A stretch of 64,000 nt of DNA from a candidate division WWE3 bacterium UBA1379 (GCA_002305475.1 DBRB01000015.1:72987-136986), one strand, 5' to 3'. Positions 40,239 to 50,864 are shown, numbered from the stretch's first letter. Translations and numbers: made by a program. The notes: generated from the letters alone by a model not told the origin.

Positions 40239-40874
40239 ATGTCGCTTTATTCTATCGGAAAAAGATTAATAGATATTATTGGGGGATTAATAGGAGTGAT
40301 ATTATTTTCCCCTTTCATGATCGGAACAGCTATTTATATTAAATTAGTATCCCCCGGCGGTACTGTATTTGTGGAAGCGGCAAAACGGGTAGGTCGAAAC
40401 GGCAAGGAATTTCCCATGTATAAATTCAGAACTATGATACCTTACGCTCAAAAATGGCTAGAAAACCAGCCGGAACTATATAAAAAATATCAGGAAAACG
40501 GCTATAAACTGGATCCTGATCCCAGATGGATCAAGGGGGCAAAAATCATTCGTAAATTCAGTCTTGATGAATTTCCACAGTTTATTAATGTAGTAAAAGG
40601 TGATATGAGTCTGGTTGGGTATAGGGCCTATTATCGATATGAACTAGATGAGCAGTTATGCATGCATCCGGAAGTAAAAGAATATTTAGATAAAGCATTA
40701 ACCGTCAAACCGGGTATTACGGGAGTATGGCAGACCAGTGGAAGATCGAAAGTAGGATTTGTGGACAGGGTAAAAATGGATGCAGCATACGCTGATAAAC
40801 AATCTTTACTTTATGATATATTTATAATTCTGAAAACACCTTATGTAGTAATTTCAGGAAAAGGAGCTTTTTGA
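40239..40874 (+). CDS. Initiating polyprenyl-phosphate phosphoglycosyltransferase, small monotopic PglC/WbaP-C-terminal type (bacterial sugar transferase family)
   Basis: An N-terminal re-entrant helix, then GRNGKEFPMYKFRTM and DELPQ-like FPQFINVVKGDMSLVG motifs. 211 aa. Confidence 0.85.
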   Translation: MSLYSIGKRLIDIIGGLIGVILFSPFMIGTAIYIKLVSPGGTVFVEAAKRVGRNGKEFPMYKFRTMIPYAQKWLENQPELYKKYQENGYKLDPDPRWIKGAKIIRKFSLDEFPQFINVVKGDMSLVGYRAYYRYELDEQLCMHPEVKEYLDKALTVKPGITGVWQTSGRSKVGFVDRVKMDAAYADKQSLLYDIFIILKTPYVVISGKGAF

Positions 40875-42817
40875 TGTCTACTAACTTTTGGCAGCCTAAT
40901 AACAATTCAAGACCTCAGGTTAATCTTAATAACCGGGGATTTAAAAAGAAGAATGGTTGGCTTAAACGTTTAGGAGTCGGCAGTGGGGTGCTGATTGCTA
41001 TTGTAGCTGTAGTCGGAATAATCGGTTTTATCTTGGTAATTAAACCCTTGTTATCTTTAGGTTCAAATGTTAGTGCCTTAAGAGCAGACGGAAGAGCAAT
41101 AAATAAAGCTTTAGTAGATCGGGACGTAGAAGCTATGGAGAAAGCTTTAAACAATACAGAGAAAGATCTCAAGGAATTCCAAATTGCCAGAGATAAGAAT
41201 GTAGGTTGGGCAAGAAACTTCGGTCCTACTAAAGAATACTATGCAGATTCGGAAAGATTTATTAATGCCGGATTATATGTAGTTGCTGCAGGTCGAGAAA
41301 CCGTCAAACTGGTTATGCCCTTCGCAGATGCAGCCGGTCTAAAAGTTTCAGGAGATACCAAGACTTCTTCATCTGAAACCGGACTTGCAGACGCTATCGC
41401 ACAGTGGGTAGCTATCATGCCGCAGATTGCAGATCAGATGGATCCTGCATTAAATTTATTGGATAAAGCAGGAGAAGAATTAAAACCGATTGATGCAAGC
41501 AAGTATCCTGAAAGCATCAGAGGATTTGCGGTACGAACCAACATTGAAGCTGCACAGACTGCATTAAGTTCAGTTGATCAGTATGCTCCCGACATTAAAA
41601 AAGCTTTAACTATTATTCCTAAACTATTAGGGGTAGGCGGTGAAAAACGATACATGATTATCATGCAGAATGATAAGGAAATTCGAGCTACTGGAGGTTT
41701 TTGGACTAACTATGCCACATTTAGAATCAACAACGCCATGTTGGTAAACCATGATATTTCCTCAAAAGATATGTATAGTATTGATCTGACCTTAGACCTG
41801 ATAGATGCTGTACACACCTTCCCTACTGCTCCTGCTGCATATCAGAGGTATCTGAAGGTCGAAAGACTGTATGCAAGAGATGCTAATATATCACCTGATT
41901 TCCCAACAGCAGTAGACAAATTCATGTATTTCTACAAACTCGCCATGCCTTTGGCTCCGGCAGAAATTAAACCGATTGACGGGATTGTGGCAATTGATAC
42001 TGAAGTGATCAAAGAGCTGTTGAATGTTACCGGACCGGTGACTGTAAATGGTGTGACATATAACAAAGATAATGTGGTTTTGGAGCTTGAAAGAACAGCT
42101 TCTCTGGAGTTAAGAGAACAGGTGGGAAGAAAGAAAGTACTGGGTGATCTAATGGAAGGTATGATGAAAAATGTGTTTGAGTCCGATAGAAATCTCTGGC
42201 CGAAAATGATTGAAACCGGAATTGATTTAGTCAACCGTAAGCATATCATTGGTTATTCATTCGATCAGGAAGCTCAGGCACTGATTGAGGAATATAAAAT
42301 TGGCGGAAGAATCATTGATCCGGTGGAAGGCGATTACTCCTATGTAGTATCTACAAACTTAGGTGGAGATAAAACCAACTGGTTTGTTAAAAAAGAAATT
42401 GATCACACCCTTTCCAAAGAAGGCAATAAGTATATAGATACCGTAACTATAAAGTATTCTTATCCACAACCCGGAGCTGAATATTCTCCTTTTGTGAAGA
42501 GATTTAGAGATTGGGTACGGGTCTATGCTCCGCTAAATTCACGACTGATTAATGTAACCGGTTCTGCGGAAGAAGCCGTAACCGATCAGGAGAGAAACAA
42601 AACTTATTTTACGGGTTATATCGAACTGGGACCTGGAGAATCTGCAGAAATGACCTTTAAATATGAACTTGCGGATAGTGTAGTGAAAAACGGAGTATAC
42701 AATCTATACATCCAAAAGCAGTCGGGAACCAACGGTGAAATCCATCGGGTGATAGTAAACGGAAAAACGGAAAATATCACTTTAACCAAAGATGCAGAAA
42801 TCTCTAAAAAACTTTGA
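40871..42817 (+). CDS. DUF4012-like secreted or membrane-anchored protein
   Basis: 648 aa with one N-terminal TM. The internal MQNDKEIRATGGFWTNYA resembles the NAElR-TGGfiG core of DUF4012 proteins, which commonly sit beside phosphoglycosyltransferases. It overlaps the PGT stop (ATGA). Confidence 0.45.
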   Translation: MMSTNFWQPNNNSRPQVNLNNRGFKKKNGWLKRLGVGSGVLIAIVAVVGIIGFILVIKPLLSLGSNVSALRADGRAINKALVDRDVEAMEKALNNTEKDLKEFQIARDKNVGWARNFGPTKEYYADSERFINAGLYVVAAGRETVKLVMPFADAAGLKVSGDTKTSSSETGLADAIAQWVAIMPQIADQMDPALNLLDKAGEELKPIDASKYPESIRGFAVRTNIEAAQTALSSVDQYAPDIKKALTIIPKLLGVGGEKRYMIIMQNDKEIRATGGFWTNYATFRINNAMLVNHDISSKDMYSIDLTLDLIDAVHTFPTAPAAYQRYLKVERLYARDANISPDFPTAVDKFMYFYKLAMPLAPAEIKPIDGIVAIDTEVIKELLNVTGPVTVNGVTYNKDNVVLELERTASLELREQVGRKKVLGDLMEGMMKNVFESDRNLWPKMIETGIDLVNRKHIIGYSFDQEAQALIEEYKIGGRIIDPVEGDYSYVVSTNLGGDKTNWFVKKEIDHTLSKEGNKYIDTVTIKYSYPQPGAEYSPFVKRFRDWVRVYAPLNSRLINVTGSAEEAVTDQERNKTYFTGYIELGPGESAEMTFKYELADSVVKNGVYNLYIQKQSGTNGEIHRVIVNGKTENITLTKDAEISKKL

Positions 42818-43370: not shown

Positions 43371-45782
43371 CTAGAGAGTAGTAACTGTCACTGTTACATT
43401 AACACTATATGTGCCACTTGGCTGGAATTTATTGCTTCCTACTTCCGATTTAAATTGAACAATCTGATTTGATCCAGTTGTTGTGCTAGTTCTTTGAGCA
43501 ATTTGATATAAAGAGGAAGCGTTAACATTAAGCCACTTTGCAGCAGTAGTATCATTACTCCCCCACGTAGCTGAACTGTAATCTGTAGATGTAGATTTTA
43601 AGCGGGCACCCCATTCGGAATTTGCTGCCGGTATACTCCATAACTCGGGAGTGTTTGCTACAGAGGGTGAGTAGGCACTAATGGTATCACCGTATGTATT
43701 TGTCATTGCAGCCGACGAAGCCTGCCATTCTATTTTATAACCGGAAGGATTATTGGTGATAACAGTCCAGGTAGCTTCACCTATACCGGATGTTCCGGTT
43801 CCGCTGATTGTTCCCATGGAAACATTTGCTGGTGAAGAAACTGAGATGGAAACAGGGTCAACCTGGTAAAATGCTGAATAACTATTTGTGGCGCTGACAC
43901 CGGTATTGTCTATTGTATATAACTGTGCACCATAATTTGTGTTTTTATTAAGAAAGTTATTATTAAACCGTATTTCAAAATTTAGTGTCCAGTTATTACC
44001 GGATGGTGTAGAATCTGCTGCTGTAGATAAAATAGTTGCCGCATTTTGTGTATCAGCGTCTTCGGAAAACGTGTCAGTCGACCTCGTCCATCTAAACATC
44101 AAAGCATTATACGGGGCTGAGTTGTCGCTGGAATTAGCCAGCCTGAGTTGGACATAATTTAGTGTATTACCACTATCAGCATCGGATACTACTGCCCGAA
44201 AGATCCATGTAGTTGAATTATCAGCTACTGCTGCATTTCCTGATCCGCCATAGGGATTAACAAATGTTAGTGAGTTATTTACAGGAGGAATGGATGCCAA
44301 GTATGTCACGGAAAGTATCGGTTTATTTGCTCCGGATTCATATGTCCCCATTGAAACTTCCTGTGAGCTTAAAATACTACTTCCTGGGGCACTTCCCGCT
44401 GCATCACGTGAAGATCTTAAGCAATAGTATGTAGATGCTGTTTTAGATACCCAGGTTGTGGTTAACGCACCGCTGGTAACTGCATCGGGAAGGGTACCTA
44501 TTGTGGAAGTATCTAGCAGTATATTTGGCTCTGCAGCGGCGGATAAACATCCATCATATGCAGTTTCTCTTTGTGTTGCATTTGCAAAATTCTGAACGGC
44601 GCTCCAGTTATAGCGGGCTATTTGAACATCGAAATCAACATTAGCAAAAATATCCCCAGTGACATAAGCTGTGAGAGTAACCTGTGAAACGTATGCCGTA
44701 TCAGGAAGTACACTAGTATCAAAACTGATATATGATCTGGAAATAAGGTATTCAGATACTTGTACTCTCTGTCCAATAACCATGCTTTCAGCAACTGAAT
44801 CCGCACTGGATGAGGTATTACGTGCAGTTGAATATGTAGTGTTTTGACCTCTGATGTAACCATCTGCGGCTAATGAGCCGTAATTTGGATCAATGATTAC
44901 CGGATATTTACGGTTTTCTTTTTTTAGCCATTCAATTCCCTCGTCACTGAGATGTTTTGCTATCCGTACTTCACTGCAGTTTCGTAGATTTTGATTTTCA
45001 TCCAGGCACTCCACCTGATATTTAACTCCGTAACTGAGATTTTCTTCATTATCCTTTTCGTACATATAGGGCTTAGGTAAATAAAGAAACGGTTCATCGG
45101 CATCAGATTTATATAACAGATATCTCCCATCCTCCTCTTTAAAATATAAATTTTTGAGTCTGATATTCTGCGTAATTTTAGGTATTCCTATGTACTCATC
45201 CAAAACTATCTTTTCACTGAGTTTCAATTCATTCAGTTCATAAATAAGATTAAAGCTATTTTTATCAGGTAATGAAAAACTATATACAGCTTGATTTTCT
45301 GAAGATTCAAAATCCGAATTTTCTATACCGCTGTCTATTTTTATATCGATGTCTTTATCGGAGTCATTGAATTCAATTTTATTTATTCCATATAACTCGA
45401 TTACATAATCATCTCTCTCAACTTTAATCATAGTTTTATCATTAGAAGATTTTTCTGAAAAATATGTTTTAAAAGAATTTGTCTTATTCATTAGATCAAA
45501 ATTTTCATCATCTGATTCGACAATTTCCAGTTTTATATCCTCCCAATTTCCATCCTCGGTTTGGTAATGAATAGGGCCGGAAGATATTTTGGTTGTGTAA
45601 TTGTTTCCACCCAGATGAAAAGTTTTTGATGACTCTGTTCTTAAATATTCAATTTCTTCAGGAGTAGGTTCTTTAGATTCTTCTGCATATGTTGAGGAGA
45701 TTGAGACACTTACACAGAGAAATCCGGTAACAACGAGGGAAGGTATGATGAAACGAAACATGTTTAATAGTATCCGTAGCAT
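43371..45782 (-). CDS. Large secreted surface protein with C-terminal WxL-like domain (CscC-like)
   Basis: About 803 aa from MLRILL..., with a signal peptide. The C-terminal roughly 160 aa are homologous to the C-terminus of the 225-aa protein at 46895-47572 (TWTVITNNPSGYKIEW...EWGARL...KWLNV...GTYSVNVTVTVTTL-stop). The ORF track's TTG start at 45818 is an alternative. Confidence 0.45.
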   Translation of the reverse strand: MLRILLNMFRFIIPSLVVTGFLCVSVSISSTYAEESKEPTPEEIEYLRTESSKTFHLGGNNYTTKISSGPIHYQTEDGNWEDIKLEIVESDDENFDLMNKTNSFKTYFSEKSSNDKTMIKVERDDYVIELYGINKIEFNDSDKDIDIKIDSGIENSDFESSENQAVYSFSLPDKNSFNLIYELNELKLSEKIVLDEYIGIPKITQNIRLKNLYFKEEDGRYLLYKSDADEPFLYLPKPYMYEKDNEENLSYGVKYQVECLDENQNLRNCSEVRIAKHLSDEGIEWLKKENRKYPVIIDPNYGSLAADGYIRGQNTTYSTARNTSSSADSVAESMVIGQRVQVSEYLISRSYISFDTSVLPDTAYVSQVTLTAYVTGDIFANVDFDVQIARYNWSAVQNFANATQRETAYDGCLSAAAEPNILLDTSTIGTLPDAVTSGALTTTWVSKTASTYYCLRSSRDAAGSAPGSSILSSQEVSMGTYESGANKPILSVTYLASIPPVNNSLTFVNPYGGSGNAAVADNSTTWIFRAVVSDADSGNTLNYVQLRLANSSDNSAPYNALMFRWTRSTDTFSEDADTQNAATILSTAADSTPSGNNWTLNFEIRFNNNFLNKNTNYGAQLYTIDNTGVSATNSYSAFYQVDPVSISVSSPANVSMGTISGTGTSGIGEATWTVITNNPSGYKIEWQASSAAMTNTYGDTISAYSPSVANTPELWSIPAANSEWGARLKSTSTDYSSATWGSNDTTAAKWLNVNASSLYQIAQRTSTTTGSNQIVQFKSEVGSNKFQPSGTYSVNVTVTVTTL

Positions 45783-45786
45783 TGTA

Positions 45787-46881
45787 TTACCAGAGCTTTG
45801 TGATTTGCTCTCTTTCAACTATTTCTATTTTCTTTTTTCCTGGTTTTACTCTGATTTCAAATTTGGACAGGAATGCAAAGACTAAACCGGCAATCAGAGC
45901 AATAGCACCTAGGATGATATAAATGGTTTGAGCGGGAATGACAAAGAAAGTTATTGATTGGGTATCTTTTTTACCATCATAACCTCTATCTAGCTCCAAC
46001 ACTGCTGAATATTTTCCTATGGCAAATTTCGGCTCCCATGTTAATTCCCGTGATCTGATGGAGTCCCGCAAAATAACCCAATCCTTAATATACAGTTCAT
46101 CAACGCTTTATCCGAATATATCCTTGATCACTATTCTTCCGGAGGGGATTAAGTGAACGTTACCTTCATTTTTAAAAGTCAGAAGAAAATTTATTGCAGG
46201 TTTTGTGAAAATTTTATTTGATGTCCTAAAACTTTGCAGGAAGCCGTTTAGTACCGCTTTATCTTTACCTGTATTAAATAGAAATAGCGCACCAGCACGC
46301 GAAGTAAGAGTAATTCCGGTGGTATTTGCATCATCATCTTCTTTAGCCGTCTGAACAAACACAGCGGAATAATGATCACCAGGTTCAACTTCTTTAGGAA
46401 CTGTAATTTTAATAGGGATATATGCTCTTTCTCCGAATTTTAAAATGATTTTTTCAGTTCCCAGTTGAAACCATGTCTTTGAAGAAAACTGTCCCACACC
46501 TTCTCCAAGAAAATGAGTGTAGTTGTTTGTATCAAGAGATGATGTGAAATCCTCAACATGAAGTTCAAATTCCGTGCTGTTTTTCATCCGGTTGGTAATT
46601 TGAATTTCTGTCCAGATTTCCTGACCCGGCTCAAGATCATAAATGAATCTGGTTGGCCCCAATACAAAATCATTTCTGATTTCCGTACCTTCCTGATGTT
46701 CAATTCTGATCTGCGGTTCAATTGTGGGAGTGGATTCCTCCACTTCAGGTATAGTTTCCGGTATACCTGCAGGGTCTTCAAAAATTTCTTTAATTATTAT
46801 TTCCTCCGCACATACAGTTCGCAATGATAGAGTATAAAGTAACAAGATAAATATTGAAAATAACTGTGTAATTTTTTTCAT
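45787..46881 (-). pseudogene. CscA-like (DUF916/DUF3324-type architecture) membrane-anchored surface protein, interrupted by a single in-frame TAA
   Basis: It has a signal peptide (MKKITQLFSIFILLLYTLSLRTVCA), a roughly 250-aa domain, the in-frame stop TAA at 46108-46110, then 12 in-frame codons continuing into the 94-aa ORF. That ORF carries the single TM helix (IYIILGAIALIAGLVFAFL) and a basic tail. Confidence 0.4.
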
Positions 46882-46894
46882 TTATAAACGGGCA

Positions 46895-47572
46895 TTAAAG
46901 GGTGGTTGCCGTCATTGTGACATTAGTGCTGTAAGTTCCCGTAGGAAGGGTATGATTGGCGCCGACCTGTACCCTAAAATATACAGTTTCTGTTGAACCT
47001 GCTGTTTCTGAATTGCGTGTAACAATCTCTCTTGGACTTGTTGCAACGTTAAGCCATTTTTCATCATCCCCGTCAGTACCCCATTCAGAGGTATTGGCAT
47101 CTGTTGAAGCAGATGATAGACGTGCTCCCCATTCTGCATCTGCAGCATCAACCGACCATGCTTCCGGTGTATCCGCAGAACCTGGAGAATAAGCATTTAT
47201 TACATCCGATCCACTGGACATTTCGGCTGTATCAGTAGACCATTCAAGTTTATATCCTGTTGAATTGTTGGTAGTAACGGTCCAGGAAGCCGACCCCCCC
47301 GATGGGCCTGTATCTCCGGTACCTGTGGTTGACCCCAGGTTTACATCAGCCGGAGATGAAATGGAGATGGTTGATCCGATTGTGACATTTACTTGCACTG
47401 TATCCGATGCAGTTGCGGCTTTTGAAATGGGAATCAGATACATGGAGAATACCAATAAATTTATTCCTGCATCGATAAAAAAAATTAGACTGAGTATTTT
47501 GTACTTATTTGGTTTATAGAGAATATGAAATTTATTGGCAGGCATACAAAATAATTGTGATGTATAGGACAA
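46895..47572 (-). CDS. Small secreted WxL-like domain protein (CscB-like)
   Basis: Signal peptide. The C-terminal domain is SWTVTTNNSTGYKLEW...EWGARL...KWLNV...GTYSTNVTMTATTL-stop, whose end resembles the WxL-domain terminus G-T-Y-x-G-x-i-T-W-x-L. The start may be the internal ATG at 47545. Confidence 0.4.
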   Translation of the reverse strand: MSYTSQLFCMPANKFHILYKPNKYKILSLIFFIDAGINLLVFSMYLIPISKAATASDTVQVNVTIGSTISISSPADVNLGSTTGTGDTGPSGGSASWTVTTNNSTGYKLEWSTDTAEMSSGSDVINAYSPGSADTPEAWSVDAADAEWGARLSSASTDANTSEWGTDGDDEKWLNVATSPREIVTRNSETAGSTETVYFRVQVGANHTLPTGTYSTNVTMTATTL

Positions 47573-47597: not shown

Positions 47598-47725
47598 AAC
47601 ATTAATTATTGGGAAACTTGACCTATTATGCTAAATCATTTACGATTACCAAGATCTCAGCACATACGACTATTTTCTCCGCTGGTTCACAAGTTTTTAA
47701 TATTTTCAATTTATTCTTAAAAGAT

Positions 47726-48361
47726 ATGTCCTACGGGATTGAAGATAAATTTAAAGATGGTCGCAATATGTCTTTTGTAAAAGGAGATATTATACTTTCT
47801 CCTGAGAAAAACGAAGGATGTATCTTTCATATTAATTCTGGTTTGGTAAGGATATTCAGTATAAGCGAGAAAGGTGATGAGGTTACCCTCGGTTTGTTTA
47901 CCTCCAACGAAATATTTCCAATCTGGTCGCTTGGAGGTAAACATAAAAATATCTTTTACTTCGAGGCTTTAACGGAAGTGGAAGTATCCGCATTAAAAAC
48001 GGAACGATGTATAGAGATGATAAAAGATTGTGCAGTCTATTCTTTTGAAATAATGTCATTGATCTCAAAACAATATGGAAATCTTCTAGAAAGAAATGCC
48101 CGATGTAATTCCGGTATAGCATATGAACAGACATCTAACCTACTGTTTGATTTAGCAGAAAGAGTAGGTATTCAGAAAGGTGATTATGTAATTATAAAAG
48201 AGAAACTCTCCCATAAATTGCTGGCTTCGTGGCTGGGTACCAGCCGGGAAACTATAAGCAGGGTATTAAGCAAAATGTCCAAAGATGGGTTGATTGATAA
48301 TATTGACGGTTATATTTCGATAAATACCAAAAAGACTAAGTTTGTACCGAAAAACCAGTAA
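47726..48361 (+). CDS. Crp/Fnr-family transcriptional regulator (cNMP-binding domain plus C-terminal HTH)
   Basis: The beta-roll region (FVKGDIILSPEKNEGCIFHINSGLVRIF) and the HTH SRETISRVLSKMSKDGLI (CRP-like R-E-x-x-x-R recognition helix). The start is taken at the ATG at 47726; the ORF track uses the TTG at 47609. Confidence 0.7.
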   Translation: MSYGIEDKFKDGRNMSFVKGDIILSPEKNEGCIFHINSGLVRIFSISEKGDEVTLGLFTSNEIFPIWSLGGKHKNIFYFEALTEVEVSALKTERCIEMIKDCAVYSFEIMSLISKQYGNLLERNARCNSGIAYEQTSNLLFDLAERVGIQKGDYVIIKEKLSHKLLASWLGTSRETISRVLSKMSKDGLIDNIDGYISINTKKTKFVPKNQ

Positions 48362-49790: not shown

Positions 49791-49895
49791 TTTTTCAAAT
49801 CTATTTATTACTAGGTTTTAAAAAAACTTTAAATTATTCCAGTTATCATAAAATTTTTATCCGGTGTTAAGTGATGTGTGGACAAGGAGAGAAGC

Positions 49896-50864
49896 ATGAA
49901 ACCCTTGATGACTCTGGAGGTACCTGATCCTAAAGTTGTGATAGACGGTTCCTGGTGGTTTTTATACAGTACCCAGATCATACTGAGTAGTAAGCATGTA
50001 AATGTTCCCACCTACACATCAAGAAACGGAGTGGACTGGGTCTATCTAGGTGATTCCATGCCGGAACTTCCGGCTTGGGGTAGAGGAGATGTTTGGGCTC
50101 CTTCTGTCTGTAAAGTTGTAACCGACGAGTACAGGATGTGTGTAACTGTCAGAAGCAAAGACGAAGGATCAATCAGACCTGTTTTAGGAAGGTCTAACAT
50201 TATCAGTCAGGGATGGAAGTATTCAAATCTTCCACTGATACCTTCTCACCGGTTAAGACGTAATTACGGAAAGAAAGGAAACAGAGAAATTGATCCTGAT
50301 TTCTTTTACGATCCAATAACAAAAAGATGGTGGTTGGTATGGGGCGGCGGAGAAATTAAGATACAGATGATGAATGAGGAGGTGACGGATTTTGAACCGG
50401 GTACACGTCCACAAGTAATACTCAAACCCGATCCGGTACGGTGCAAATCGGAAGCTTATTGGATTGAAGCACCCACTCTAACATTTTTTGACGGACTCTA
50501 TAATCTTACATATTCTGCCGGTGTTCATTACTGGATCGGTGACAGAAAGCCTACATATGTGATTAAGCAGGCAAGAGGCATGCATCTGCTTGGTCCGTAT
50601 TTTCGGCCATCGGAGACAGATAATTGTGATGTTTCTGATTATCTTCTGACGGGTTCCCACCTGGAGGGCGGTTGGATTGCACCCGGGCATCATAGTTTCC
50701 CGATAGAAAACGGTCGGGTAGTGTTTGATGAACAGGATATTCTTTGGTGCTACCACCATGCAATACCTGGATATATTTCACCCAGAGGTAAACCTATCTT
50801 TTATATGTTCCGTTACCCTATGCGGTTTGGAGAGGATGGTTGGCTGCAAAGAGTAAAAAGATAA
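49896..50864 (+). CDS. Glycoside hydrolase family 43-like protein (five-bladed beta-propeller)
   Basis: The three GH43 catalytic positions are present: PDPKVV (base Asp), DPDFFYDPITKRWWLVWGG (pKa-modulating Asp) and WIEAPTLTFFDGLYNLTYS (acid Glu). A strong SD (AAGGAG) sits 6 nt before the ATG at 49896. The gene is GC-richer than its neighbours. Confidence 0.65.
   Translation: MKPLMTLEVPDPKVVIDGSWWFLYSTQIILSSKHVNVPTYTSRNGVDWVYLGDSMPELPAWGRGDVWAPSVCKVVTDEYRMCVTVRSKDEGSIRPVLGRSNIISQGWKYSNLPLIPSHRLRRNYGKKGNREIDPDFFYDPITKRWWLVWGGGEIKIQMMNEEVTDFEPGTRPQVILKPDPVRCKSEAYWIEAPTLTFFDGLYNLTYSAGVHYWIGDRKPTYVIKQARGMHLLGPYFRPSETDNCDVSDYLLTGSHLEGGWIAPGHHSFPIENGRVVFDEQDILWCYHHAIPGYISPRGKPIFYMFRYPMRFGEDGWLQRVKR

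Follow-up and report, generated by a model that had tools for sequence, protein, structure and literature searches.

The stretch of DNA analysed here, 64 kb in length and hereafter called the window, contains at 43371-47572 three tightly packed ORFs on the minus strand, a small, a middle and a large one, which point in the same direction and are separated by intergenic gaps of 13 nt and 4 nt. Three co-directional minus-strand genes had been reported at this place in a preliminary description, and the ORFs were indeed found there. By inspection, all three products begin with a basic and then hydrophobic stretch resembling a signal peptide. The host is an ultra-small bacterium of the Patescibacteria type (CPR). 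The features of the cluster are:

47605..47652, minus strand: two sigma-70-like promoter matches that overlap each other, just upstream of the small gene, weak and suggestive
46895..47572, minus strand: small secreted protein; the TTG start gives 225 aa, the ATG at 47545 used by the gene callers 216 aa
46898..47371, minus strand: TATTL domain, predicted to be pilin-like, in the small protein (residues 68-225)
45787..46881, minus strand: WxLIP-like (DUF916/CscA-like) gene with 364 codons and an in-frame stop that breaks it
46495..46545, minus strand: residues 113-129 of the WxLIP-like protein, a loop in its first Ig-like domain and candidate donor strand or hairpin
46108..46110, minus strand: in-frame TAA of the WxLIP-like gene, within the part for the second Ig-like domain
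45862..45933, minus strand: C-terminal transmembrane helix (residues 317-340), a helix in the AF2 model; IYIILGAIALIAGLVFAFLSKF is hydrophobic and is followed by a basic tail
43371..45782, minus strand: large secreted protein, 803 aa from ATG or 796 aa according to the gene callers
43374..43850, minus strand: TATTL domain in the large protein (residues 645-803), with the end ...VTVTVTTL-stop

The promoter matches are suggestive only, because the region contains fewer such sites than shuffled sequence. As had been noted before, no LPxTG-type protein (the CscD partner) is found within the window, and no S26 peptidase is present among the immediate neighbours of the cluster (gene table of the same region in L010).

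The small protein, for which a secreted product of 225 aa had been proposed, was confirmed as an ORF of this length; it consists of the signal-peptide-like N-terminus and a single domain of around 160 aa, which ends with ...VTMTATTL-stop. Its AF2 model reaches a pLDDT of 84.8, with values above 90 across 150 residues, and none of its 68 homologues carries a Pfam domain. The large protein, described beforehand as a secreted protein of the 800-aa class, was found as an ORF of 803 aa comprising a signal peptide, an N-terminal region of around 600 aa and a C-terminal TATTL domain. The N-terminal region has no database match, and the large protein as a whole has none in Pfam, NCBIfam or the PDB; the profile of the small family (alignment A1) matches its C-terminal 176 or so residues only (E 4e-59).

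Interruption and relationships of the middle gene

The in-frame TAA at 46108-46110 cuts the middle gene at codon 258 and splits it into parts of 257 aa and 94 aa. The same split of 257 aa and 94 aa is present in the separate Logan assembly of run SRR5321211. Every orthologue has a Lys at the position of the stop, encoded by AAA in three loci. The read-through translation comprises 363 residues, and the orthologues are intact with 315-336 aa; both exhibit a signal peptide, two Ig-like beta-sandwich domains, a transmembrane helix and a basic tail. Because the TAA, which had been missed in the preliminary description, interrupts the gene, the architecture given there for the middle protein exists in full only in the read-through translation and in the orthologues. 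The transmembrane helix is situated downstream of the stop and hence outside the 257-aa product.

Concerning its relationships, the middle protein is a distant homologue of WxLIP (DUF916/CscA), as indicated by PF06030, profile searches, hhalign and Foldseek. PF06030 matches the middle protein of the window with 21.2 bits (E 3e-4; cut-off 27.3) and is found in 9 of 11 members of the middle family, always below threshold (best E 2e-5); PF11797 (DUF3324) matches none of these 11 members at E<=1. The middle-family profile finds true Enterococcus WxLIP with E 3e-5 (hmmsearch) and, among PDB entries, EfmWxLIP1 with E 0.05, while hhalign aligns the middle family with true WxLIP over 215 columns spanning both domains. 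When the AF2 model of the middle protein is used for Foldseek, ranks 1-3 are taken by chains of the Enterococcus faecium WxLIP (9i25_C, 9i1y_A and 9i1y_B) with E-values of 2e-11 to 1e-10 and 268-278 aligned columns, the second domain included. The TM-scores against the E. faecium chains are low (0.30-0.43), which may result from the signal peptide and the helix of the query or from another angle between the domains. The conserved N-terminal motif NQIDKxxxYFDLK of the PGBD has a partial counterpart in the middle family (RNDFxxGPTxxxxDLxPGE), and YFDL of EfmWxLIP1 corresponds to kfeLDL in the profile alignment. Chaperones of chaperone-usher systems (CfaA, Caf1M, FimC and CsuC) resemble the middle protein as well (Foldseek E 3e-10 to 1e-7), which, at the level of the fold, speaks for a TATTL domain that takes up a strand.

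The loop formed by residues 113-129 is predicted to be disordered (pLDDT <50) and exhibits a conservation of 0.67 versus 0.65 in the folded core. For WxLIP, a hairpin has been predicted to complete the WxL sandwich (PMC10599100), and a WxLIP-long-WxL complex has been solved according to the title of 9i25.

The TATTL domain in comparison with WxL domains

The small and the large protein have in common a C-terminal domain of around 155 aa, in which 77 of 151 residues are identical (51%; E 6e-42), so that the homology of the two C-termini assumed earlier holds; all the motifs given for it (SWTV(T/I)TNN..GYK(L/I)EW, EWGARL, KWLNV and GTYSxNVT(M/V)T(A/V)TTL-stop) were likewise recovered. Among the small homologues of alignment A1, the C-terminal TATT is invariant and the final L near-invariant, and the family consensus includes TNNxxGYxLxW and GtYxxxvTxTAttl-stop. 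The TATTL domain is a large, hitherto unannotated family, with 2,129 representatives at E<=1e-3 (clusters at 50% identity). The end of the domain lies at most 5 aa from the C-terminus in 145 of 150 representatives, with 78 counting as small (<=260 aa) and 60 as large (>400 aa). The N-terminal cargo of large members comprises Laminin_G_3, RCC1, SBBP, fn3, InlB B-repeat, Kelch and FG-GAP. Because the same C-terminal domain bears lectin, beta-propeller, fn3 and repeat cargo, it may act as a modular anchor. As part of the explanation preferred below, the domain would be a pilin-like beta-sandwich of around 160 aa anchoring adhesin-type proteins, a reading to which we incline slightly.

The terminus of the domain had been compared to the end of WxL domains, a parallel that was not borne out. 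In WxL domains, the first motif has the context hydrophobic-x-D-x-R-G...G-W-x-L and the second, near the C-terminus, L-T-W-x-L-x-x-x-P (PMC9772566). Neither Trp-x-Leu motif is found in its WxL context in the TATTL family consensus, and the family has neither the Asp/Arg pair nor the terminal Pro. PF13731 has no match at E<=1 in the small and large proteins of the window or in 41 members of the small family; in 45 large members, a match at E<=1e-3 is likewise missing (together with the small ones, around 85 members). The TATTL family profile matches no PDB chain, though the library includes the long WxL chain 9i25_A, and this solved chain is not situated within the top 50-60 structural neighbours of the domain. 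Authentic WxL sequences for comparison are exemplified in locus L001. With hhalign, neither the match to true small WxL (probability 11.6%, 12 columns) nor that to true long WxL (0.15%, 21 columns) is significant; in the control, true small and true long WxL are aligned with each other over 130 columns (E 8.7e-4).

The shared domain might nonetheless be a true WxL domain that has diverged strongly and binds directly to peptidoglycan, in which case the cluster would be a csc/WxL locus from beyond the Firmicutes. In favour of this, the cluster is built alike and its partner is homologous; the best local hhalign match sets QPtGTYsxxVTxT on QPGATYQGMVTWE of true long WxL, in the register of the preliminary description; a conserved W-x-[VIL] (W139) falls, in the alignment with small WxL, on the first of its WxL motifs; and the motif-like elements are spaced by 81-113 residues, similar to small WxL proteins (PMC9772566). 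However, this register is that of the non-significant hhalign match, and in it M/V/A stands in place of the Trp of the second motif and an invariant Ala in place of the Leu. Together with the missing Asp/Arg pair and terminal Pro, the PF13731 result and the structural rank of 9i25_A, this makes such a diverged WxL domain decidedly unlikely, as does the 51% identity between the small and large copies, given that the topology of canonical WxL domains is not the same for the small and the large ones (PMC9772566).

Since there is no detectable sequence or profile kinship and 9i25_A is not among the top neighbours, the WxL analogy of the shared domain is to be regarded as organizational only. Of the divergent WxL-type surface complex proposed earlier, the organization and the WxLIP-like middle protein stand, but not the WxL identity of the shared domain. 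Judging from sequences and models, the middle protein is related to known WxLIP, whereas the attachment domain is a different, unannotated one.

Related loci and a possible mode of surface tethering

In six of seven related loci independent of the window (L002, L004-L008), a WxLIP-like gene directly adjoins the small gene; in the seventh (L009), the contig starts just upstream of the small gene and no WxLIP-like gene is seen. L007 exhibits the order small, middle, large as in the window. The small protein of L004 (P0055) bears the NCBI label Thermoleophilia, not Patescibacteria. The comparison across related genomes hence argues against three unrelated secreted proteins that have a common beta-sandwich module and whose adjacency is functionally meaningless. 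Ig-like folds are ubiquitous, and the anchor gene is broken in this genome, as might be expected under such a view; yet the adjacency in six independent loci, one of them labelled Thermoleophilia, the spacing of 4-13 nt and the exact parallel with WxL clusters (PMC10599100) make it highly improbable.

A WxL cluster is by definition composed of at minimum one WxLIP together with two WxL proteins within four genes (PMC10599100). Like such clusters, known from Lactobacillales, Enterococcus and Listeria (PF13731, PF06030, PF11797; 9i25, 9i1y), the present one encodes a small protein consisting of the domain only, a membrane-anchored two-Ig protein (320-380 aa) and a large protein with a C-terminal domain; its middle protein is detectably a distant homologue of WxLIP, and the disordered loop of domain 1 corresponds in position to the predicted strand donor of WxLIP. 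There are, however, also differences: The TATTL domain lacks a PF13731 match, both WxL motifs and any significant profile or top-ranked structural likeness, and its copies in the small and the large protein are of nearly one type instead of topologically distinct. Furthermore, PF11797 and an LPxTG (CscD) partner are missing, the host is of Patescibacteria type and not a Firmicute, and the WxLIP-like gene is interrupted. Concerning the suggestion that the gene order mirrors that of csc loci, the small/WxLIP-like/large arrangement is thus present and recurs, but the attachment domain is not demonstrably WxL and the anchor gene contains a stop.

The three genes may accordingly be seen as a cell-surface display cluster that follows the logic of WxL/WxLIP (csc) systems with another attachment domain. 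The middle protein would be a membrane protein of type I that exposes two Ig-like domains outside the cell and is anchored by a transmembrane segment at its C-terminus. The disordered loop of its first domain would insert as a beta-strand into the TATTL domain, beside the invariant C-terminal strand; in this way, both the small protein and the large one with its cargo would be held non-covalently at the cell surface. Binding of the TATTL domain to the WxLIP-like protein in a donor-strand mode is inferred from synteny and analogy. A WxL-like surface-tethering system working by strand complementation is, by a narrow measure, what we consider probable for this cluster.

Comparison with fibre-forming systems

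The structures ranked nearest to the small protein are without exception those of fibre subunits that assemble through donor-strand exchange (PMC11494351, PMC9245690). The cluster could therefore encode an usher-less fibre of this kind, in which the small protein would be the major subunit, joined head to tail, the large protein a tip adhesin (similar to FimH or PapG) and the membrane-anchored two-Ig protein, comparable to PapD or TapA, a chaperone, initiator or base. An adhesin, a pilin and a two-Ig chaperone indeed make up the parts list of chaperone-usher pili, and the likeness of the middle protein to PapD-type chaperones is almost as good as that to WxLIP. The invariant extreme C-terminus, with a Gly 14 residues before the end, recalls what we take to be the C-terminal motif of chaperone-usher pilins, which would favour a fibre. 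In L002, moreover, an S26 signal peptidase adjoins the small gene, as SipW does beside tasA.

Compared to chaperone-usher pili (archaic Csu/CupE; SCPU, PF05229), the cluster exhibits a weak SCPU match on the C-terminal strands (E 0.0099; 16.7 bits versus a cut-off of 22.4), found in 1 of 41 small members, a partner with the two-Ig-domain shape of the chaperones, and a large protein laid out as an adhesin, with cargo followed by a pilin domain. Searches for the families of this system (PF00419/PF05229, PF00345, PF00577) yielded only the sub-threshold SCPU match, such that the likeness lies at the level of the fold; the usher (PF00577) has no match among the three cluster proteins, and PapD_N none in the middle family. 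In contrast to these pili, the three cluster proteins include no usher, an outer membrane is presumably lacking, the 'chaperone' is anchored in the membrane, and neither component has a detectable Pfam membership. Nor is an N-terminal extension specific to polymerization evident, since profile positions of around 28-44, the segment ahead of the conserved core, occur in large and small proteins alike.

TasA/TapA of Bacillus, the archaeal bundling pili AbpA/AbpB and the environmental TLP-1 fibrils (9ikk) offer a further comparison. TasA, AbpA and TLP-1 are donor-strand-complemented fibre subunits of monoderm or archaeal systems, in which an accessory protein gives the complementing strand. They differ from the present cluster in that TasA (PF12389) has no match in the cluster or the small members, identity amounts to 6-14%, a SipW-type peptidase is missing from the window, and the accessory protein of the cluster is similar to WxLIP and not to TapA. 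The window contains no dedicated signal peptidase, and the nearest relative of the middle protein, WxLIP, is not known as a builder of fibres. Taken with the Pfam results, this renders a fibre unlikely.

Returning to tethering by strand complementation, Patescibacteria and at least one Thermoleophilia-labelled locus might possess a widespread, hitherto unannotated, usher-less donor-strand surface system in which a membrane-anchored two-Ig protein, WxLIP-related and with the shape of a chaperone-usher chaperone, completes and holds the TATTL domain; this generalization is put forward tentatively and is rather doubtful. If it were true, the TATTL domain with its varied lectin, propeller and adhesin cargo would constitute a modular host-attachment toolkit of episymbiotic ultra-small bacteria, and the system would form an evolutionary bridge between the WxL clusters of Gram-positives and the chaperone-usher pili of Gram-negatives.

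In the genome studied here, the 257-aa product of the middle gene would keep the signal peptide and the first domain with its loop, but would be without a part of domain 2 and without the membrane helix. As the premature TAA removes these latter parts, the surface system is probably impaired or decaying in this genome.

Gene layout and the interrupted middle gene

The preliminary description had placed three co-directional genes on the minus strand, and ORF calling in the window recovers them as a closely packed group:

43371-47572, minus strand: cluster of three tightly spaced ORFs
46895-47572, minus strand: small gene, 225 aa from TTG (gene callers: ATG at 47545, 216 aa)
45787-46881, minus strand: middle, WxLIP-like gene, 364 codons with one in-frame TAA
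46108-46110, minus strand: in-frame TAA, splitting the WxLIP-like gene into ORFs of 257 aa and 94 aa
43371-45782, minus strand: large gene, 803 aa from ATG

The middle gene had been read as encoding one single protein, the in-frame TAA having been overlooked. All ten middle-gene homologues (315-336 aa) are uninterrupted and carry Lys at the position of the stop; in three related loci the codon for this Lys is AAA, such that one A-to-T change accounts for the TAA. Run SRR5321211, assembled separately in Logan (L010, the window's own region), shows the same split into 257 aa and 94 aa; the stop thus belongs to the data and is not an artefact of one assembler. Concerning a possible recoding of TAA, the evidence favours mutation, the orthologous codon being only one base off; the 47 ORFs of at least 150 aa (code 11) that almost tile the whole window likewise count against recoding. 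The premature stop takes away the membrane helix and some of domain 2, and the surface system, whatever its role, is probably impaired in this genome; as the anchor gene is broken, the finding carries less weight for this one genome.

The WxLIP-like protein and its linkage to the small gene

The proposed assignment of the middle protein to the CscA/DUF916 type is supported at the levels of sequence and structure. PF06030 (WxLIP_PGBD, formerly DUF916) matches it with E 3e-4, under the gathering score, and is found in 9 of 11 members of its family (best E 2e-5). The family profile picks out EfmWxLIP1 among PDB sequences (E 0.05) and, in a local search, the Enterococcus lactis WxLIP (E 3e-5); hhalign aligns family and WxLIP, the latter as a single-sequence template, over 215 columns across both domains (E 4.7e-4, probability 33%). 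The AF2 model (pLDDT 78.6) shows a pair of beta-sandwich domains plus a helix spanning residues 317-340, and its top three Foldseek matches are 9i25_C, 9i1y_A, and 9i1y_B (E. faecium WxLIP, E 2e-11 to 1e-10), followed by the chaperone-usher chaperones CfaA, Caf1M, FimC, CsuC, and CupB2. Among the Pfam models brought forward in the preliminary description, PF06030 thus has a sub-threshold counterpart in the middle protein, whereas PF11797 (DUF3324) was undetected there and PF13731 (WxL) remained without a match.

In the authentic E. lactis WxL locus (L001), the WxLIP ORF (959-1927) has no obvious transmembrane helix at its end. A separate ORF of 114 aa comes next (2118-2462); it combines a signal peptide and an FPETN motif with a hydrophobic stretch that has a basic tail, and might encode an anchor protein of the CscD kind.

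Both family profiles were searched in eight loci (L002-L009) fetched through small-protein homologues, a set lying outside the window's own region; L003, a 1.2-kb fragment with the same small gene as L002, was left out of the locus count. The WxLIP-like gene directly adjoins the small gene in six of the seven loci (L002, L004, L005, L006, L007, L008), the exception being L009, the contig of which begins just upstream of the small gene. The small protein of L004 (P0055) is labelled Thermoleophilia at NCBI, and L008 has the same gene neighbourhood as L004. The order small, middle, large of the window recurs in L007, while L005 has small, middle, small and L006 has large, an intervening gene, small, middle. 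A WxL cluster is defined by a minimum of one WxLIP together with two WxL proteins (PMC10599100), and the present loci fit this definition except for the identity of the attachment domain. The reading of the locus as a WxL (csc)-type cluster is therefore supported for its arrangement, which recurs in related loci, but not for the attachment domain, which is not demonstrably WxL. The LPxTG partner is indeed missing, no LPxTG protein being found in the window.

The shared C-terminal domain

The small and large proteins share a C-terminal domain of about 160 aa (here TATTL domain), with 51% identity across the C-terminal 151 residues (E 6e-42); their homology, as well as all motifs quoted for it, is thus confirmed. 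A small-family profile searched against 1.84 billion representative proteins yielded 2,129 family members at E<=1e-3 (888 at E<=1e-10), each being a cluster at 50% identity. Position and ending of the domain, and protein length, were scored on the best 150 of these 2,129 proteins: the domain ends 0-5 residues from the protein C-terminus in 145, the small size class (<=260 aa) comprises 78 and the large one (>400 aa, maximum 1,919 aa) 60, and the final five residues are TATTL in 47, most others ending in T-A-x-x-[L/N/Q]. Large members carry at their N-termini Laminin_G_3, RCC1 and SBBP propellers, fn3, InlB B-repeats, Fib_succ_major, Kelch, or FG-GAP domains. Given its C-terminal position and this varied cargo, the TATTL domain behaves as a modular C-terminal unit beneath surface-type cargo. 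Concerning its distribution, the small-protein homologue P0004 (56% identical where aligned) falls into one 90%-identity cluster with a Candidatus Dojkabacteria protein (NCBI name), and for another one, P0035 (45% identical), the name given is 'Patescibacteria group bacterium'.

For the TATTL domain, neither Pfam nor NCBIfam yielded a model, and no small-protein homologue carries a Pfam annotation. For the three cluster products, Pfam gave only the sub-threshold matches to PF06030 (middle) and SCPU (small), while in NCBIfam the small and large proteins had none and the middle gene's C-terminal fragment a negligible hit of 13 bits. The N-terminal 600 or so residues of the large protein (43860-45680, minus strand) have no Pfam, NCBIfam, or PDB-sequence match; the same region is present in homologues, e.g., P0083-P0085, with 41-63% identity. 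A segment near 'SRSYISFDTSVLPDTAYVSQVTLTAYV' in this region recalls CBM96/DNRLRE-type modules by eye, with no profile support.

The shared domain had been likened to a WxL domain, and four comparisons made on this point all came out negative. PF13731 has no match at E<=1 in the window proteins and 41 small-family members, in the latter of which other matches (Gmad2, DUF4402, SCPU) are sporadic and weak; 45 large members likewise lack one at E<=1e-3. Searched with the small-family profile, neither the PDB chains (E<=10) nor the ORFs of L001 yield a hit; L001 is the authentic comparison locus, and its large WxL C-terminus corresponds to chain 9i25_A ('WxL domain surface protein'). In hhalign, the TATTL family reaches a probability of 11.6% over 12 columns against true small WxL proteins (Neff 1.9) and of 0.15% over 21 columns against the true long WxL domain. 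The true-WxL alignment, built from a search with E. lactis SwpA, contains only 16 close relatives, which limits the sensitivity; a control was therefore run for calibration, and true small and true long WxL align over 130 columns covering both WxL motifs (E 8.7e-4). The defining WxL motifs (PMC9772566) are absent from the TATTL family, with its consensus TNNxxGYxLxW and GtYxxxvTxTAttl-stop, as are the Asp/Arg pair and the terminal Pro. The register formerly proposed for the C-terminal strand reappears in the best local hhalign match to the long WxL domain, but this match is not significant, and at the second Trp-x-Leu site it puts M/V/A in place of Trp and an invariant Ala in place of Leu. As the true-WxL profile is shallow, the TATTL domain may still be a very remote WxL homologue.

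For the small protein, AF2 gives a confident model (pLDDT 84.8, 150 residues above 90). Its structural scores are moderate, and the likeness is therefore read as one of fold class and not of family membership, the only echo in sequence being the SCPU match over the last strands (E 0.0099). The environmental TLP-1 fibril, unknown in origin and built by donor-strand exchange (PMC11494351), resembles the TATTL domain at fold level only.

Possible mode of attachment and genomic surroundings

In the middle protein, residues 113-129 are predicted to be disordered (pLDDT < 50) and are about as conserved as the core (0.67 vs. 0.65), the eleven residues that follow being more so (0.74). A loop of WxLIP is likewise unstructured in monomer predictions, and AF2 predicts that it completes the WxL sandwich as a strand (PMC10599100); we infer that residues 113-129 correspond to it. 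The WxLIP-like protein would then keep the TATTL domain on the cell surface, its conserved loop inserting as a strand into the pilin-like, strand-accepting sandwich. Such tethering is suggested by the solved WxLIP-long-WxL complex (title of PDB 9i25), by the prediction for WxL and WxLIP, and by the fold classes of both partners. Alternatively, the cluster might encode a true donor-strand-exchange fibre: its subunit would be the small protein, its tip adhesin the large one, and its anchored chaperone or initiator the middle one. The stretch before the conserved core occurs, however, in large as well as small proteins, such that no polymerisation-specific N-terminal extension is apparent, and we consider the fibre less probable than tethering. 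The folds suggest that one strand-completion trick is common to WxLIP-type proteins and to the chaperones of chaperone-usher systems. In a full-text search of the literature, WxL stood alongside chaperone-usher systems in only two general papers, neither of which gave a sign of comparing them.

We class the cluster as WxL-type with a homologous anchor protein, but with a different attachment domain, unannotated and widespread. It is an entry point to an extensive family of anchor domains at the C-terminus, with many cargo types and a genomic pairing with a WxLIP homologue. If this pairing is physical, it would allow the surface proteome of CPR/Patescibacteria to be predicted by a sequence rule, and the WxL/WxLIP principle would reach well beyond Firmicutes. 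To our knowledge, adhesin display and host-cell attachment in these bacteria are largely uncharted beyond type IV pili, and no paper that connects Patescibacteria with WxL or DUF916 turned up in full-text searches.

Some related loci contain further genes that are absent from the window: an S26 signal peptidase adjoining the small gene in L002 (4790-5359), which recalls sipW-tasA, and proteins with CarboxypepD_reg domains downstream of the cluster in L007 (9950-10582) and L005 (6680-8629). The window cluster itself is flanked as follows (L010 gene table):

40871-42817, plus strand: 648-aa DUF4012 protein, overlapping recO
47609-48361, plus strand: Crp/Fnr-type regulator (cNMP_binding and HTH_Crp_2)
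49878-50864, plus strand: neighbouring region on the GH43/dcw side

Beyond the regulator, the latter flank comprises glyS, a GH43 glycoside hydrolase, and the dcw cluster with mraZ, rsmH, and a PBP gene. The regulator is divergent from the small gene at a distance of 37 nt (longest ORF) or 64 nt (gene-caller start), and could control the cluster.
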